DNA of 64,000 nt from an uncultured Candidatus Rokubacteria bacterium (GCA_963708025.1 CAVPSB010000034.1:128001-192000), one strand, 5' to 3'; positions 1-5,896 are shown, counted from the first letter of the stretch. The notes: generated from the sequence alone by a model not told the origin. Translations and numbers: made by a program.

Positions 1-1256
1 CCGGCGAAGCCCCCGAAGAACACGGCGCTGAACAGCGTGTAGTGGAAGTGCGCGACGACGAAGTAGGTGTTGTTGATGTAGATGTCGACCGGGGCCGACC
101 CGTTGAAGATGCCGGTGAGCCCGCCCACGATGAACATCGTGACGAAGCCGAGGGCCCAGAGCATCGGGGTGTCGAAGCGGATCGAGCCCCGCCACAGCGT
201 CGCGATCATCGCGAACATCACGAAGGCGAACGGCACCGAGATCAGGATGGTCGTGACCGAGAAGGGCATCGCCAGACGCGGGTCCATGCCACTCACGAAC
301 ATGTGGTGCGCCCACACGATGAACGACAGCGCCCCCGCCACCAGGGTGGCCCAGATGATCCACCGGTACCCGAAGATCGGCTTCCGGGAGAACACCGGCA
401 GGACCTCCAGCACGAAGCCGACGGCGGGCAGCAGCACGACGTAGACCTCGGGGTGCCCGAAGAACCAGAAGAGATGCTGCCAGAGGAGCGGGTCCCCGCC
501 GCCGGCCGGCGCGAAGAACTGCGTCCCGATCGTCCGGTCCAGGAGGAGCATCACCGCCCCGCCGATCAGGGGCCCCACCGACAGCAGGAAGATCACCGCC
601 GCCATGAGTTGATGCCACACGACCAGCGGGAGCCGGAAGAAGCCCATGCCCGGGGCTCGCAGGACGATCGCGGTCGTCACGTAGTTGACCCCGCCCATCA
701 GGAACGACGCGAACTCCAGCGCGTGGGCCAGGAGCCAGAGGTTCAGCCCCCACGTCACCCCGGTGAAGTCCGGCCGCGCCGACAGCGGCGGGTACCCGGT
801 CCAGCCCGCCGAGGCCGCCCCGCCCGGCACGAAGAAGGACACGAGCAGGAGCAGGGAGGCGACGAGGAACACCCAGACCGAGAGCATGTTCAGGCGCGGG
901 AAGACCATGTCCCGGGCGCCGATCATGAGCGGGATCAGGAAGTTTCCGAACGCCCCCAGCAGGATGGGCATCGCCACGAAGAACACCATGATGGTCCCGT
1001 GCATCGTGACGAAGACGTTGTAGGCCTCGGGCCCGACCTCGCCCAGCACCGGAACTGGCGCCTCCGGCCAGGCGAGCTGGTATCGCATCAGGAACGCGAG
1101 AAAGCTCCCCACCAGGATCCAGAACACCCCGAGGCCGAGGTACTGCATCCCGATGGTCTTGTGGTCGGTCGCGAAGACGTACCGCCCCCAGAATCCCGGC
1201 GCCGCGTGCTGGGCGACGTGCGCCACCGCCGCCGTCCCGGCCCCCGCCTCGCTCAT
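1..1256 (-). CDS. coxA: Heme-copper oxidase subunit I, A-family (3' end outside window); atypical K-channel and Mg site
   Basis: Not in the ORF track; translated by hand from ATG 1256. Motifs: ATDHKTIG, TMHGTIMVFF, FGNFLIPLMIGARDMVFPRLN, GWTGYPPLS, WQHLFWFFGHPEVY, VWAHHM, VVAHFHY. Confidence 0.95.
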   Translation of the reverse strand, partial: MSEAGAGTAAVAHVAQHAAPGFWGRYVFATDHKTIGMQYLGLGVFWILVGSFLAFLMRYQLAWPEAPVPVLGEVGPEAYNVFVTMHGTIMVFFVAMPILLGAFGNFLIPLMIGARDMVFPRLNMLSVWVFLVASLLLLVSFFVPGGAASAGWTGYPPLSARPDFTGVTWGLNLWLLAHALEFASFLMGGVNYVTTAIVLRAPGMGFFRLPLVVWHQLMAAVIFLLSVGPLIGGAVMLLLDRTIGTQFFAPAGGGDPLLWQHLFWFFGHPEVYVVLLPAVGFVLEVLPVFSRKPIFGYRWIIWATLVAGALSFIVWAHHMFVSGMDPRLAMPFSVTTILISVPFAFVMFAMIATLWRGSIRFDTPMLWALGFVTMFIVGGLTGIFNGSAPVDIYINNTYFVVAHFHYTLFSAVFFGGFA

Positions 1257-1281: not shown

Positions 1282-1959
1282 TCAGGATCCCCACTGCTCG
1301 GCCCGCCACCGGTCGAAGACCTCCGGCGTCTCGACGAAGAGGTATCCCTTCATCCCGGAGTGCCCGAACCCGCAGAGCATGGCGCAGGGAAGCTCGTACT
1401 TGCCGGTCTTCGTCGCCTCGAACCAGGCGTCGATCACGCGCCCCGGCACCACGTCCTGCTTGAGACGGAGGTTGGGCAGGAAGAAGCTGTGGATGACGTC
1501 CTTCGAGCGGAGCTCGAGCCGCACCGGCTTCCCGACCGGGACGTGGATCTCGTTGTCGAAGGTCCGGTCGTCCGTGGTGTCGAACTTCCCGTCCGGCCCC
1601 GGGTAGACGACCTCCCAGTTGAACTGCTTGCCGGTGACCCGGATCGTCAGCTCCGCCGGCGGCCGCTCCAGCTTGACCCGCGCCCAGGCCGGCGCGCCCT
1701 TGAAGTCGATCCAGAAATCGAGCACCAGCACGACCGCCACCGGGACGAGCAGCCACGCCACCTCGCCGAGCCGCTCGCCGCGCACGTACGCCGCGCGCTG
1801 GCCCGGGCGGCGCCGGTAGCGGACGAGGAACCAGCCGATGGCGCCGAAGGTGATGAAGAACCAGATGATCGTGAGGTAGTAAACCAGGCCGAAGACCGCG
1901 TCGATCTCGCCACCGTAGGTCGAGACGTTCTCGGGCAGCCACCGGAACCAGTTGAGCAT
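1282..1959 (-). CDS. coxB: Cytochrome c oxidase subunit II (CuA)
   Basis: MLNWFRWLPENVSTYG start, two TM helices, GKQFNW, DVIHSF, CAMLCGFGHSGM CuA motif. ATG overlaps the upstream TGA (TGATG). Confidence 0.93.
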   Translation of the reverse strand: MLNWFRWLPENVSTYGGEIDAVFGLVYYLTIIWFFITFGAIGWFLVRYRRRPGQRAAYVRGERLGEVAWLLVPVAVVLVLDFWIDFKGAPAWARVKLERPPAELTIRVTGKQFNWEVVYPGPDGKFDTTDDRTFDNEIHVPVGKPVRLELRSKDVIHSFFLPNLRLKQDVVPGRVIDAWFEATKTGKYELPCAMLCGFGHSGMKGYLFVETPEVFDRWRAEQWGS

Positions 1960-2390
1960 CAGGACGCCTCCCGCCGCGTCGGGGGGGTGTGAGCCGGGAC
2001 CAGGTCGTCGATGCGCACCGCCTCGAGCTCCCGGGTGACGAGCGCCTGGATCCGGAGCCAGACTGGATGGACCGGGCACGTGCCGGCCCGGGCACACCGC
2101 GGTGGCCGGGTCACGCACCGGTTGAGCGCCATCGGCCCCTCGACGGCCTCGATGACCCGCCGGAGGCTGATCGTGTGCGGGCTCGCCGCGAGCGAGACGC
2201 CACCCAGCGCGCCGCGCCGCGTGTGCACCAGACCGTCCCGCGCGAGGGCCTGGACGATCTTGGTCAGGTAGGCCCGGGGCACCTCGGTGCGCCGGCCGAG
2301 GTCGTCCGTCCTGACGGTCGTCCCCGCCGGCTGCGCCGCCAGATCGACGACGACCCGCACCGCGTAGTCGCCCTTGCGCGTGAGCTCCAT
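1959..2390 (-). CDS. Rrf2-family (IscR/NsrR-like) Fe-S transcriptional regulator
   Basis: MELTRKGDYAVR, YLTKIVQAL, RGALGGVSLA, and three Cys in C-x6-C-x5-C (RCVTRPPRCARAGTCPVH). Confidence 0.92.
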   Translation of the reverse strand: MELTRKGDYAVRVVVDLAAQPAGTTVRTDDLGRRTEVPRAYLTKIVQALARDGLVHTRRGALGGVSLAASPHTISLRRVIEAVEGPMALNRCVTRPPRCARAGTCPVHPVWLRIQALVTRELEAVRIDDLVPAHTPPTRREAS

Positions 2391-2394
2391 GGAG

Positions 2395-2420
2395 TGGACC
2401 TTGTTGATCCCGTTGGTCCA
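2395..2420. promoter_or_regulatory. Inverted repeat TGGACC-N14-GGTCCA, putative Rrf2 autoregulatory operator
   Basis: Perfect 6-bp arms ending 4 nt before the Rrf2 ATG. Confidence 0.5.
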
Positions 2421-2623
2421 GAAGGACCTACCCGAGGATCGCTCACGGGCCACGGCGCGGACAATGAGGCATCCGCATCATTTCCCTAGTCCGGGCGACC
2501 CGGTCGTCCGGCACCTCGACGAAGCGAGCCGGCGCCGTCTCGAGGAACGCCTCGGGTGGCGGCGCGCCTCGTCCACCGCTGAAAGGGTCGGAACGGCCGG
2601 CGCAGCCCCCGGGGGGGGGAGAA

Positions 2624-2652
2624 TCGAGGGGGGGGTCTTCCGAGCCCTCGAA
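2624..2652 (-). repeat. Family-A 3' hairpin (degenerate copy)
   Basis: TTCGAGGGCTCGGAAGACCCCCCCCTCGA, 4 nt after the stop at 2657. Confidence 0.55.
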
Positions 2653-2656
2653 GGGA

Positions 2657-5600
2657 CTACCGGGTCTCGACCGCCGGGAGACCGCCTTCGCGCACGAGCG
2701 TGTTGAACGCGGACACGTCGGCGTCGACCAGCGCCTGGAGGCGACCGAGCTCCCGGCGGACCTGGGCCGCCAGGTGCTCGTAGACCTCGACGGCCTGCCG
2801 GGGTGGGGCGGCGTCGGCGCTCGACAGCACGCTGACCAGGGAGGCCAGGCGGAGGTTGAGGCGCGCGGGATACCGGAGCGCGTCCATCGAGTTCCGGGCG
2901 CCGGTCTGGACCAGCTCGGTCTCGATCTCGGTGAGCCGGGCCACGAGCGCCTCGGCCGCGCCGGCGATGGCGAGGAGACGCTCGGGGGCCTCGCCGGGCG
3001 CCGTGGACTCGCGGACGCGCTGGGACCACTCGCCCACCTGACGGCGGATCCGCCGGAGGCGGTTGATGCCGGCATGCGTCTCCGACAGCGTGTCGCGGAT
3101 GCGGCTCCACAGGGCGAACTGCGCGTCGAGATCGGCCTGGCTGGCCGGCACCCGGGGATCCTTGCGCACCTCGAACGACTGCGTCCACGACCGGTCGCCG
3201 ACCGTCAGACGGACCTGGTAGGTGCCGGGCGGAGCGAGCGGGCCGGTGATCGCCTTCTCGGTGGTGACGTCACCCGGCACCTTTTCCGCGCCGGGGTAGC
3301 GGAGGTCCCACACGAAGCGGTTGAGGCCCGGCCGGGCCGTGATGTAACGCTCGTCCTTCGGCGCGGCTTCGGGGGCGACCGACGTCGTCTCGGCGCCAGG
3401 CGGCCGGCTCGTTCCGCCGTCGGCTGCCGGCTCCTCCGGCCGTGTCCCGAACGTGCGGATCACGGCGCCCCCGGATTCCAGGAAGCCGAGCGACACGGGA
3501 CCGGCAGGCGCGCCGGGAAGGACGTAGTAGACGATGGCGCCGGTCGGCGGGTTCTCGCCGGCGTCGAGGAACGTCCGCAGGCGCTCGCCCTCGGGCGTCC
3601 GGTCCTCGTAGAAGGTCAGCCCGGTCCCCAGCGCCATCATGTAGTTCTTGTGGTGCTTGCCCGGCCCCCGGAAGAGGTCCACGCTCCAGTTCTGCCAGGG
3701 CCGCACGGTGGCGCGCGGCGGGAGGAGCCGGGCGGCCTCGGCCGCGCTCGCCGTCGCCTCGCGCAGCGGGGTCAGGTCGTCGAGGATCCAGAACGACCGG
3801 CCGTGGGTCGCGGCGACCAGGTCGCCGTTCTTGACGGCGAGGTCGTAGACCGGCGCCACCGGCAGGTTCCCGGGAAGCCGGTGCCAGGTCGTCCCGTCGT
3901 CCCCGGACACCACGACCCCGGTCTCCGTCCCGACGTAGAGGAGCCCGCGCCGCGCCGGGTCCTCCCGGATGACGCGGCTGATCTCGCCGGCCGGGAAGTC
4001 CCCGGCCAGGGCGCGCCAGGTGTGGCCGTAGTCGTCGGTCCGGTAGAGGTAGGCGTGGTAGTCGTCGAGCTTGTAGCGGGTGGCGGCCACGTAGGCCGTG
4101 CCGCGCGCGTGCGGCGAGACCTCGATCGTCGCGATCAGGGACCACTCGGGCAGATCGGGCGGCGTCACGTTCTGCCAGCGTCTGGCCGTCGTCCCGCGAG
4201 ACGTGGACGAGGCCGTCGTCGCTCCCTGCCCACAGGACGCCCCGCTCGTGCGGGCGACTCGGCAAAGGCGTAGACGGTGCCGTAGTGCTCGGCGCCGCTG
4301 GTGTCCTTGGTCAGCGGCCCGCCCGAGGCTTCGAGCTTGGTCGGGTCCTGCCGGGTGAGGTCCGGGCTGATCGCCTCCCAGCTCGAGCCCTCGTCGCGGG
4401 TGCGGAAGACGAGGTTGCCGGTGGCGTAGAGCGTGCCGGGGTCGTGGGGCGAGAAGACGATGGGGAAGGTCCAGGCGAAGCGGTACTTGAGGTCCCGGGC
4501 GCCCCAGCCGTAGTACACCTCCGGCCACACGGTGACGAGCCGGATCTGGCGCGTGCGGTGGTCGTAGCGCTGGAGCGCCCCACCGCCGCCGGGCGAGCTG
4601 CCGACCGCGCCGACGTAGACGACGTTCGGATCGCGCGGGTGGACCGCGATGTACCCGCTCTCCCCGGTGCCGGCCGGGTAGCAGTCGCCCCAGGTGATGC
4701 CGCCGTTCTCGGAGGCGCTTGGCACGCTCACGCTCGAGTTGTCCTGCTGGGTGCCGTAGACGCGGTAGGGGTGCTGGTCGTCGGTGGCCACGTGATAGAA
4801 CTGCGCGGTGAGCTGGTTGTAGATGGTGGACCAGCTCCCGCCCGCCGTTGAACGAGACGCAGGCGCCGCCGTCGTTCCCCTCGATCATGCGCCGGGGATC
4901 CCGGGGGTCGATCCAGAGATCGTGGTTGTCGCCGTGCGGCGTGGTGATCTCGGCGAAGGTGCGCCCGCCGTCGGTCGACTTCCACATCTTGAGATTGGTC
5001 ACGTAGACCGTGTCGGGGTCGACCGGGTCCGCGAAGACGTGGCAGTAGTACCAGGGGCGATGGATCAGGTCGCGGTTGTCGGAGACGAGCTCCCACGTTC
5101 GCCCGCCGTCGTCCGAGCGGTAGAGGCCCGCGCTCGACGCCTCGACGATGGCCCAGACGCGATCGCCCCGGGCCGGGGACACGCTGACCCCGATCTTGCC
5201 CTTGATCCCGCGCGGCAGCCCCGGATTGTCGGTGATGTCCGTCCAGGTGTCGCCCCCGTCGGTCGACTTGTAGATCCGGCTGTCCGGGCCCCCGCTGGAG
5301 AGCGTCCAGAAGTGGCGGTACACCTCCCAGGTGGCCGCGTAGAGGACGCGGGGGTTGCCCGGGTCGAGGGCGAGGTCGATCGCGCCCGCCTTGTCGCTCG
5401 TGAAGAGGACCTGCTGCCAGCTGCGGCCGCCGTCCCGGGAGCGGAAGACCCCGCGCTCCCGGTTGGGTCCGAACGCGTGGCCGAGCGCGGCGACGTACAC
5501 CAGGTCGGGGTCGCGGGGGTGGACGCGGATCTTGCCGATGTGACGGCTGTCGGCCAGCCCCACGTGCGTCCACGTCTGGCCGCCGTCGGTCGTCTTGTAG

Positions 5601-5896
5601 ACGCCGTCGCCGTAGGAGACGTCGATCCGGATGGTCGCCTCCCCCGTTCCCGCGTAGATGACGCTGGGATCCGACTCGGCCACCGCCAGCGCACCGATGG
5701 CCGCCGTTCGGAAGTAGCCGTCGGAGACGTTCTCCCAGTACGTGCCGCCGTCCGTCGTCTTCCACACCCCACCGGCCACGGCACCGAAGTAGAACACCGC
5801 CGGCTCGGTTGGATGGCCGGCGACCGCGACCACCCGCCCGCCGCGCGGGGGACCGATGCAGCGCCACCGGAGGGTCTGGAACAGGGCTGGGTCCAT
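2657..5896 (-). CDS. BNR/VPS10-like beta-propeller glycosyl hydrolase-family protein (compensating frameshifts at ~4840, ~4250, ~4180)
   Basis: WRCIGPPRGGRV start and many S/T-x-D-G-G-x-T-W repeats. The middle segment lies in ORFs 4165-4791 (YGTQQDNS) and 3270-4265 (WAGSDDGLVHVSRD). Confidence 0.85.
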   Translation of the reverse strand: MDPALFQTLRWRCIGPPRGGRVVAVAGHPTEPAVFYFGAVAGGVWKTTDGGTYWENVSDGYFRTAAIGALAVAESDPSVIYAGTGEATIRIDVSYGDGVYKTTDGGQTWTHVGLADSRHIGKIRVHPRDPDLVYVAALGHAFGPNRERGVFRSRDGGRSWQQVLFTSDKAGAIDLALDPGNPRVLYAATWEVYRHFWTLSSGGPDSRIYKSTDGGDTWTDITDNPGLPRGIKGKIGVSVSPARGDRVWAIVEASSAGLYRSDDGGRTWELVSDNRDLIHRPWYYCHVFADPVDPDTVYVTNLKMWKSTDGGRTFAEITTPHGDNHDLWIDPRDPRRMIEGNDGGACVSFNGGRELVHHLQPAHRAVLSRGHRRPAPLPRLRHPAGQLERERAKRLRERRHHLGRLLPGRHRGERVHRGPPARSERRLRRRGRQLARRRWGAPALRPPHAPDPARHRVAGGVLRLGRPGPQVPLRLDLPHRLLAPRPRHALRHRQPRLPHPRRGLELGGDQPGPHPAGPDQARSLGRAADQGHQRRRALRHRLRLCRVARTSGASCGQGATTASSTSRGTTARRWQNVTPPDLPEWSLIATIEVSPHARGTAYVAATRYKLDDYHAYLYRTDDYGHTWRALAGDFPAGEISRVIREDPARRGLLYVGTETGVVVSGDDGTTWHRLPGNLPVAPVYDLAVKNGDLVAATHGRSFWILDDLTPLREATASAAEAARLLPPRATVRPWQNWSVDLFRGPGKHHKNYMMALGTGLTFYEDRTPEGERLRTFLDAGENPPTGAIVYYVLPGAPAGPVSLGFLESGGAVIRTFGTRPEEPAADGGTSRPPGAETTSVAPEAAPKDERYITARPGLNRFVWDLRYPGAEKVPGDVTTEKAITGPLAPPGTYQVRLTVGDRSWTQSFEVRKDPRVPASQADLDAQFALWSRIRDTLSETHAGINRLRRIRRQVGEWSQRVRESTAPGEAPERLLAIAGAAEALVARLTEIETELVQTGARNSMDALRYPARLNLRLASLVSVLSSADAAPPRQAVEVYEHLAAQVRRELGRLQALVDADVSAFNTLVREGGLPAVETR

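Follow-up and report, generated by a model that had tools for sequence, protein, structure and literature searches.

A 143-residue Rrf2-family protein is encoded at the head of an aa3-type terminal oxidase operon in an uncultured Rokubacteria bacterium. Together with a 24-bp palindrome before its own start codon, it probably forms a dedicated, self-regulating switch for this accessory oxidase, with an O2- or oxidant-labile Fe-S repressor as the sensor (probability of the whole model about 0.55).

Rokubacteria are abundant, uncultured bacteria of soil and groundwater. The host genome (Rokubacteria/Methylomirabilota) is 8.17 Mb in 49 contigs, and the window, the whole stretch of DNA analyzed, is 64,000 nt in length (G000:C34:128001-192000). 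The genes rrf2, coxB, and coxA and the candidate operator all lie on the minus strand, with the rrf2 ATG at 2390. The features of the coding region are as follows.

1959..2390, minus strand: rrf2 coding sequence, 143 aa plus a TGA stop at 1961-1959 (translation, Pfam PF02082, TIGR00738).
2076..2117, minus strand: putative cluster-binding segment with codons C92 (2117-2115), C99 (2096-2094), and C105 (2078-2076), then H108 (ortholog alignment).
1957..1961, minus strand: TGATG, the rrf2 stop and coxB start, with one base (1959) common to both (sequence).
1282..1959, minus strand: coxB, 225 aa, cupredoxin subunit II with the CuA motif C-A-M-L-C-x3-H-x2-M (Pfam COX2, E 2.7e-16; translation).
1..1256, minus strand: coxA, first 418 of 571 codons, running past the window start (Pfam COX1).

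The 143-aa protein belongs to the Rrf2 family. It matches PF02082 over residues 3-131 (E 3.7e-34; 118.1 bits, cut-off 30) and scores above the cut-off of the NCBIfam Rrf2 superfamily model TIGR00738 (110.2 vs 73.3 bits). Its N-terminus, M-E-L-T, agrees with the M-Q/R-L-T of its orthologs. The three cluster-type cysteines named in a first-pass annotation of the window are C92, C99, and C105, the only cysteines in the protein, spaced C-X6-C-X5-C. They are invariant, as is D8, in 8/8 orthologs aligned; H108 is replaced by Tyr in one of the eight. In a profile alignment, C92, C99, C105, and H108 fall on E. coli IscR positions 92, 98, 104, and 107. Three conserved cysteines after the dimerization helix point to the Fe-S-binding subgroup of the family. 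The host genome encodes two other Rrf2 paralogs.

All models of named Rrf2 regulators scored below their cut-offs. The highest scores were to IscR (TIGR02010, 77.9 vs 207.55 bits) and the SUF regulator (76.3 vs 110.65), followed by RirA (61.5 vs 193), CymR (59.3 vs 195), a second IscR equivalog (NF008110, 53.6 vs 275), and the NsrR equivalog NF008240 (50.4 vs 182). A match to the NsrR structure 5n07 was also obtained (E 3.8e-10). Streptomyces NsrR holds its cluster with three Cys and Asp8. The ligand set of the window protein would fit an IscR-like or an NsrR-like cluster equally.

The rrf2 stop codon overlaps the coxB start in TGATG, as the first-pass annotation had read it (junction ...TCC TGA TGC..., coxB ATG at 1959-1957). 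The coxB N-terminus, MLNW..., aligns with its orthologs from residue 1. Where coxB is directly adjacent in orthologs (14 loci), the two genes overlap by 7 or 10 nt in 11 and are separated by 6-7 nt in two and by 106 nt in one. The same annotation had suggested inspecting the genes beyond coxA, which are coxC, coxD, a second COX3-like gene, and a gene for a membrane protein. The order is thus rrf2-coxB-coxA-coxC-coxD, COX3-like, membrane protein, with products beyond the window of 571 aa (CoxA), 192 aa (COX3), 93 aa (COX4_pro), 245 aa (COX3-like), and 313 aa (membrane protein). The operon contains no nor, nir, hmp, or hcp gene. No isc or suf gene is found near rrf2, whose neighbors are coxBACD. 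A consensus scan of positions 1900-2800 detected no terminator.

The linked enzyme looks like an O2 reductase. CoxA retains GHPEVY, the WAHHMF His pair, and the D-channel Asp and other D-channel residues, and CoxB retains the CuA motif. Canonical A-family enzymes need the K proton channel. When CoxA was aligned to the solved mycobacterial CtaD, PTGIKFF was paired with PFAFVMF, replacing the K-channel Thr and Lys with Phe and Val. This loss is common to the window CoxA and 11/11 orthologs examined. The host genome encodes two further A-type subunit I genes and a fourth, interrupted one; the K-channel Lys is retained in the CoxA paralogs encoded on contigs C32 and C15. A coxB of the C32 type (or some match at E <=1e-40) is present in 50/61 genomes, and most relatives have a second, canonical coxB type. 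The rrf2-linked coxB type is found in about 8/60 relatives. Tallies of coxB types, and those of rrf2 orthologs in the 60 relatives, include the unpublished genomes G038 and G055, on which none of the remaining results depend. Together with the coxB distribution, the absence of the K-channel Thr and Lys from the linked CoxA, against retention of the Lys in two paralogs, supports the earlier proposal, said to fit the altered proton channel, that the rrf2-linked oxidase is accessory and not the housekeeping enzyme.

Linkage between rrf2 and oxidase genes is conserved. Rrf2 orthologs with 55-69% identity occur in 7/60 relatives, where the next best match is 35% identical. A scan of species-representative genomes yielded 80 rrf2 loci, seven of which are the same records as the ortholog loci of the 60-relative set. 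In a quick tree that left out L119, the window protein falls in a clade of 26 rows (Rokubacteria and a few others; SH-aLRT 99). The gene-neighborhood search proposed by the first-pass annotation found a same-strand gene for an O2-reducing enzyme downstream of rrf2 in 22/26 clade rows. Downstream of rrf2, the clade rows contain:

coxB-coxA (aa3): 18 rows, three of them with one or two inserted genes.
cbb3 (ccoNO-ccoP-ccoG): 1 row.
Multicopper oxidase with a bd-like subunit: 2 rows.
Another heme-copper oxidase: 1 row.
Locus cut by a contig end: 2 rows.
No identified oxidase: 2 rows.

In the full set, 38/80 loci have a downstream oxidase match. More distant relatives precede cydAB (14 loci), rubrerythrin (5), ribonucleotide reductase (5), hybrid-cluster protein (3), and cysteine-desulfurase-type (2) genes, and one precedes the gene of a DUF2249-NnrS protein. 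A cydAB-linked relative from Deltaproteobacteria has an Rrf2 that is 35% identical. The oxidase type also occurs without the regulator. No rrf2 lies within 1.5 kb upstream of the orthologous coxB-coxA in G059 and G033, the G056 locus is truncated at the end of its contig, and searches of these three assemblies returned no Rrf2 ortholog.

Rrf2 genes adjoining oxidase genes are already known, and the window locus is a further example. Rrf2 genes neighboring cydAB, cbb3, and aa3 genes have, to our knowledge, been reported from several phyla and characterized in none. Searches of the literature on Rrf2 and terminal oxidases returned no characterized oxidase-dedicated Rrf2 and no operator for one, and searches on Rokubacteria and Rrf2 returned no study of such a regulator. 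PMC13194489 names Rrf2 once, in a context with no bearing on this locus. A regulatory link has been proposed for Geobacter sulfurreducens GSU1639, an Rrf2 gene whose locus tag comes ahead of the cydAB region (PMC7726332). The same has been proposed for Acidithiobacillus ferrooxidans ctaR, an Rrf2 gene by oxidase biogenesis genes, and a cbb3-linked ctaR homolog was remarked on in T. denitrificans (PMC2754497). The passages of these papers that were consulted describe no operator or coupling for GSU1639 or ctaR (PMC7726332, PMC2754497). Both resemble the window locus in placing an Rrf2 gene beside terminal oxidase or oxidase biogenesis genes, but they belong to other clades and phyla, and the window partner is a K-channel-less aa3-type enzyme joined to its regulator by overlapping stop and start codons.

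The region before rrf2 contains the following features.

2396..2419, minus strand: candidate operator, 24 bp, GGAC-N6-GATC-N6-GTCC (ortholog-only matrix, conserved position).
2399..2402, minus strand: weak SD-like AAGG within the right half of the candidate operator, 8 nt before the ATG (sequence; putative SD role).
2424..2428, minus strand: additional GGTCC, 4 nt ahead of the left arm, in an approximately 12-nt insertion unique to the host genome (not conserved).
2459..2464, minus strand: conserved TTGTCC, a putative -35-like hexamer, with a poor -10-like CGATCC (2441-2436) 17 nt downstream.
2478..2486, minus strand: GGGAAATGA, the window version of the A-tract block AGAAAAATGA of the orthologs, possibly an UP-like element.

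The palindrome noticed just before the ATG in the first-pass annotation spans 2395-2420 and consists of TGGACC (2420-2415), N14, and GGTCCA (2400-2395), separated by CTCC, 4 nt, from the rrf2 start codon. The accompanying remark that there is no clear SD stands insofar as a strong SD is absent; the weak SD-like AAGG at 2402-2399 qualifies it. The arms by themselves are not rare, as the 8.17-Mb genome contains three copies of TGGACC-N14-GGTCCA and 38 of GGACC-N14-GGTCC, so the significance of the site rests on position and conservation. A matrix was trained on 18 orthologous sites, excluding the window's own. With this matrix, the window site scored 28.2 bits, the highest of 275 positions above 12 bits on both strands of the whole genome; the next scored 22.0 bits.

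The check for an upstream motif in homologous loci was also positive. The core GGAS-N6-GRYC-N6-STCC was found with <=1 mismatch and <=60 nt upstream of rrf2 in 19/25 assessable clade loci, and the 653,220 nt scanned contain 41 other matches at <=1 mismatch. Of the six clade loci without such a match, four retain a degenerate copy in register and two have none. With a stricter pattern, the sole match in G039 is the rrf2 site, and G001 has the rrf2 site and one other. No second convincing site emerged from the matrix scan of the host genome (all others <=22 bits) or from a pattern scan of five relatives. The motif also precedes rrf2 in the multicopper-oxidase loci, and it is missing from three orthologous loci where the oxidase genes occur without rrf2 (<=8.5 bits) and from five housekeeping coxB loci (<=12.3 bits). 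It thus tracks rrf2, not the oxidase. In the Clostridiales locus L065, which encodes a 50% identical Rrf2, GGAC-N6-GGTC-N6-GTCC lies 17 nt after the rrf2 stop and before cydA in the opposite orientation, and this loose pattern has just four occurrences in the 5-Mb genome. A second Firmicute, L151, has one copy before rrf2 and another between rrf2 and cydA. Rrf2 dimers bind sites of 23-29 bp, and the 24-bp inverted repeat, placed at the regulator's presumed promoter or leader, falls within that range. The palindrome is a credible candidate operator.

Upstream regions of the orthologs have three blocks in common: the A-tract AGAAAAATGA, a -35-like (G/C)ATTG(T/A)nC, and the GGAS-N6-GRYC-N6-STCC motif before the ATG. 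The A-tract is 52-57 nt before the motif in 14/18 orthologous loci, and ATTG is 33-37 nt before it in 17/18. In the window, ATTG is 46 nt before the motif, the insertion adding approximately 12 nt to the distance between motif and -35-like element seen in orthologs. At the position of AAGG, orthologs have GAAAGG or GGAAAG. In the sub-clade of the window, the right half-site is asymmetric, with AA instead of the expected TT, and overlaps these SD-like purines, so a possible role in translation is not separable from the proposed operator role. A consensus sigma-70 scan of positions 1900-2800 detected no promoter, and the position of the operator relative to the transcript start is therefore a prediction. 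Should the conserved TTGnnC be the -35 element, transcription in most orthologs would begin at or inside the motif. One ortholog sub-clade has a second palindrome, TGTGC-N6-GCACA, over the -35-like element.

In the proposed mechanism, Rrf2 would act as a dimeric winged-helix regulator, made from the first gene of the operon and probably carrying an Fe-S cluster on C92, C99, and C105, with D8 or H108 as a fourth ligand. The cluster-intact dimer would bind GGAC-N6-GATC-N6-GTCC through the half-site GGAC-nAA. Positioned downstream of the conserved -35-like element, ahead of the rrf2 start codon, and over the weak ribosome-binding site, the bound dimer would repress, rather than activate, rrf2, coxB, coxA, coxC, coxD, the COX3-like gene, and the gene of the 313-aa membrane protein. 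O2 or a related oxidant would degrade the cluster, release the protein from DNA, and allow expression of the operon. With rrf2 as the leading gene and its stop codon overlapping the start of coxB, the regulator would be made together with the oxidase and close a negative feedback loop. The first-pass annotation had described the locus as an inducible NO/redox-stress module. Of that reading, the credible operator, the coupling, and the accessory oxidase are supported, and the emphasis on NO is not. A lack of conserved linkage or of the palindrome in homologous loci, which that annotation named as refuting, was not observed.

FNR is an O2-labile Fe-S transcription factor that sets terminal oxidase choice and is a global regulator of the CRP family. 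The likeness to FNR is one of function only, as the CRP-family fold is unrelated and the window Rrf2 is apparently local, acting on a single operon. With one protein, one 24-bp site, and one operon, the locus would be a tractable system for respiratory regulation in Rokubacteria. The regulator also offers a handle on the K-channel-less aa3-type oxidase, since the inducing signal would show the purpose of the enzyme.

For a signal of O2 or an oxidant, acting on a labile repressor, we estimate roughly even odds. An O2 or redox signal is favored because the partners within the clade are O2 reductases of four different kinds. Oxygen is also favored because, in anaerobes, the Rrf2 genes of more distant relatives stand before bd oxidase and rubrerythrin genes and because the operon lacks any NO-related gene.

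It is unlikely that the protein is instead an NsrR-like NO sensor, in which nitrosylation of the cluster would derepress the oxidase for nitrosative stress, the enzyme being NO-tolerant or NO-consuming. NO sensing keeps some weight because D8 and the three cysteines reproduce the NsrR ligand set, and the match to 5n07, the distant relatives that precede hybrid-cluster protein genes (3 loci) or the DUF2249-NnrS protein gene (1 locus), and the unusual oxidase without a K channel all agree with it. Like NsrR (Streptomyces coelicolor 5n07 and 7b0c; E. coli, Bacillus), the window Rrf2 is probably a cluster-dependent repressor with a palindromic candidate site over its promoter or leader. It differs from NsrR in its score to the NsrR equivalog, which is far below the cut-off and below that of the IscR model, and in its linkage to O2 reductases (aa3, cbb3, multicopper, and bd-like in the clade) rather than to NO-detoxifying targets such as nor, nir, hmp, or hcp. 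The catalytic and D-channel residues kept in CoxA and the CuA motif kept in CoxB likewise resemble those of an O2 reductase. These scores, the gene content of the operon, and the four kinds of O2-reducing partner are what count against the NO emphasis of the earlier reading.

A sensor of iron or Fe-S supply, resembling IscR or RirA, would permit synthesis of the heme- and copper-rich oxidase only when iron is sufficient; we regard this as improbable. E. coli IscR (4hf0, 4hf1, 4hf2, 4chu) has the same Rrf2 winged-helix fold with an aligned Cys triad and His, and IscR and the SUF regulator are the top-scoring named models. IscR heads and regulates its own operon, and the window Rrf2 heads, and probably regulates, its own. 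Nonetheless, the IscR, SUF, and RirA models all score far below their cut-offs, the operon encodes an oxidase with no isc or suf genes nearby, and the fourth IscR-type ligand, H108, is Tyr in 1/8 orthologs. The site GGAC-N6-GATC-N6-GTCC is presumably unlike IscR type 1 or type 2 sites, and a global iron regulon would be expected to show more than the single high-scoring site seen in the genome; either of the two other Rrf2 paralogs could take that role. Precedents that favor iron are A. ferrooxidans ctaR, for which an iron-responsive role in regulating aa3 biogenesis was predicted (PMC2754497), and GSU1639, reported to be Fe(II)-responsive and under Fur control (PMC7726332). The remainder of the odds goes to a signal other than O2 or an oxidant, NO, or iron or Fe-S supply.

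Returning to O2 as the preferred signal, a tentative extension is that the window protein may belong to a cross-phylum family of oxidase-dedicated Rrf2 O2 sensors in Rokubacteria, Firmicutes, and probably Chloroflexota, with the common half-site GGAC-nAAG, each switching on an adjacent accessory O2-reducing enzyme. The adjacent targets would then be a K-channel-less aa3, cbb3, or bd oxidase or a multicopper oxidase, the circuit would be a locally wired, FNR-independent response to O2, and the K-channel-less aa3 would be a specialized enzyme made only on an O2 signal. A common operator half-site would allow sequence-based prediction of oxidase-linked Rrf2 regulons.

There is little likelihood that the motif is not the Rrf2 operator and serves instead as a 5'-UTR or translation-initiation element, for example by masking the weak SD in a hairpin or standby site, or as the site of another regulator. 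Its position is in keeping with such an element, as it ends 3-12 nt before the ATG in 19/19 aligned sites with its right half over the SD-like purines, and a translation element would also be predicted to track rrf2. Another factor may act over the -35-like element in the sub-clade with TGTGC-N6-GCACA. The 81-nt leader of the window folds better than shuffled sequences (z = -2.98), but the fold rests on GGTCC 2424-2428, which competes for pairing with GGACC, and on CGUGAGC/GCUCACG pairing, neither of which is conserved in orthologs, and a hairpin was rejected. Across the 19 aligned sites, the arms pair in 73.7% of cells vs 70.6% in shuffles, with 50/500 shuffles as high. No covariation beyond sequence conservation was detected in the arms of these sites, and the fourth pair is broken in 8/19. 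If the -35-like assignment is right, most ortholog transcripts would start inside the motif, which also counts against a leader element. Copies in L065 and L151 are found in either orientation between rrf2 and cydA, at a distance from the rrf2 start, and a 24-26 bp palindrome fits the size of Rrf2 dimer sites. Because the arms lack covariation, the Firmicute motif lies between rrf2 and cydA, and the motif follows rrf2 and not the oxidase, we favor a protein-binding DNA site with the half-site GGAC-nAA(G) over an RNA hairpin.

A reading of the motif as coding sequence, in an N-terminal extension from GTG 2453, was discarded on the varying motif-to-ATG distance (3, 4, 5, 6, 10, and 12 nt) and on the ortholog starts, which are all M-Q/R/E-L-T.

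No run shared half of the window's sequence words, and four metatranscriptome runs were examined as Logan contigs. One contig of 244 nt aligns to 2252-2495 with 7 differences, and another of 163 nt aligns to 2272-2410 with a single difference; these contigs come from relatives, from RNA libraries that may contain DNA, and demonstrate neither transcription nor a start site nor co-transcription. Among the contigs listed for the four runs, none spans the rrf2/coxB junction.

A 287-aa ORF at L012:9589-10452 was ruled out as a gene, as it has no family match, is Arg/Gly/Pro-rich, and has no similarity to CtaA; the true gene there is the overlapping 245-aa COX3-like frame. The 313-aa membrane protein at the end of the operon matches no Pfam family and is 61% identical to the product of a gene located between rrf2 and coxB in some relatives.

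The A-family subunit I (CoxA) linked to rrf2 departs from the canonical proton-channel pattern at its K-channel positions. The subunit I genes considered are:

Window 1-1256 and L012:11541-13256 (L012 being the operon region on contig C34 of the source genome G000): coxA, A-family subunit I linked to rrf2.
G000:C13:368037-369202: fourth heme-copper subunit I gene of the source genome.

In rrf2-linked CoxA, the K-channel Thr and Lys positions are occupied by Phe and Val (VPFAFVMF vs VPTGIKFF), and the D-channel residues, GHPEVY, and CuB histidines are all retained. The same pattern is found in 11/11 CoxA orthologs, and the K-channel Lys is present in two CoxA paralogs of the same genome. The rrf2-linked enzyme, a natural K-channel-less aa3-type oxidase, merits separate study. 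The fourth subunit I gene is split or broken by an in-frame TGA.

Across loci, the oxidase operon is accompanied by a 313-314-aa membrane protein that belongs to no Pfam family, encoded at:

L012:8602-9543 (G000:C34), minus strand: source-genome copy.
L048:1665-2609, L051:5489-6433, L053:4648-5592, and L129:532-1476: copies in loci of relatives.

Its gene lies 3′ of the cox genes in L012; relatives have it between rrf2 and coxB. The L012 and L048 copies share 61% identity, and the protein looks internally duplicated when the alignment is judged by eye. The nearest Atlas clusters are nameless and derive from Gemmatimonadota and Methylomirabilota.

Gene content also varies among relatives. In three orthologous operons (L044-L046), coxB and coxA are separated by an inserted gene for a COX15/CtaA-like heme A synthase. 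In L047, which is the same record as L015, the rrf2 stop is overlapped by what remains of the coxB start (ATGCTGAACTGG..., which translates as MLNWLRS up to a stop). No oxidase gene was found within 5 kb of this rrf2 stop, and the genes 3′ of rrf2 encode a 158-aa unknown protein and an MMPL transporter. L047 appears to have lost the oxidase operon and retained rrf2 and its motif. In two Chloroflexota loci (L070 and L084), Rrf2 relatives are encoded 5′ of tandem fusion genes whose products combine a cytochrome c domain with a partial cytochrome bd subunit I domain.

Many orthologous loci (L043-L055, L061) contain a second palindrome, TGTGC-N6-GCACA, ~16-31 nt 5′ of the motif; the multicopper-oxidase loci have a TCACA variant. 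This CRP/FNR-like palindrome overlaps the -35-like element, so an additional regulator may act there in the orthologous loci. The window's own rrf2 leader lacks TGTGC-N6-GCACA.

Upstream of that leader lie:

Window 2600-2645: C8, C9, and G5 runs, in the spacer between the BNR/sortilin-like gene and the rrf2 leader.
Window 2657-5896, minus strand: BNR/sortilin-like gene.

Homopolymer runs of this type are error-prone in assembly; alternatively, the 2600-2645 element may be a G/C hairpin that resembles a terminator but lacks a T-run.
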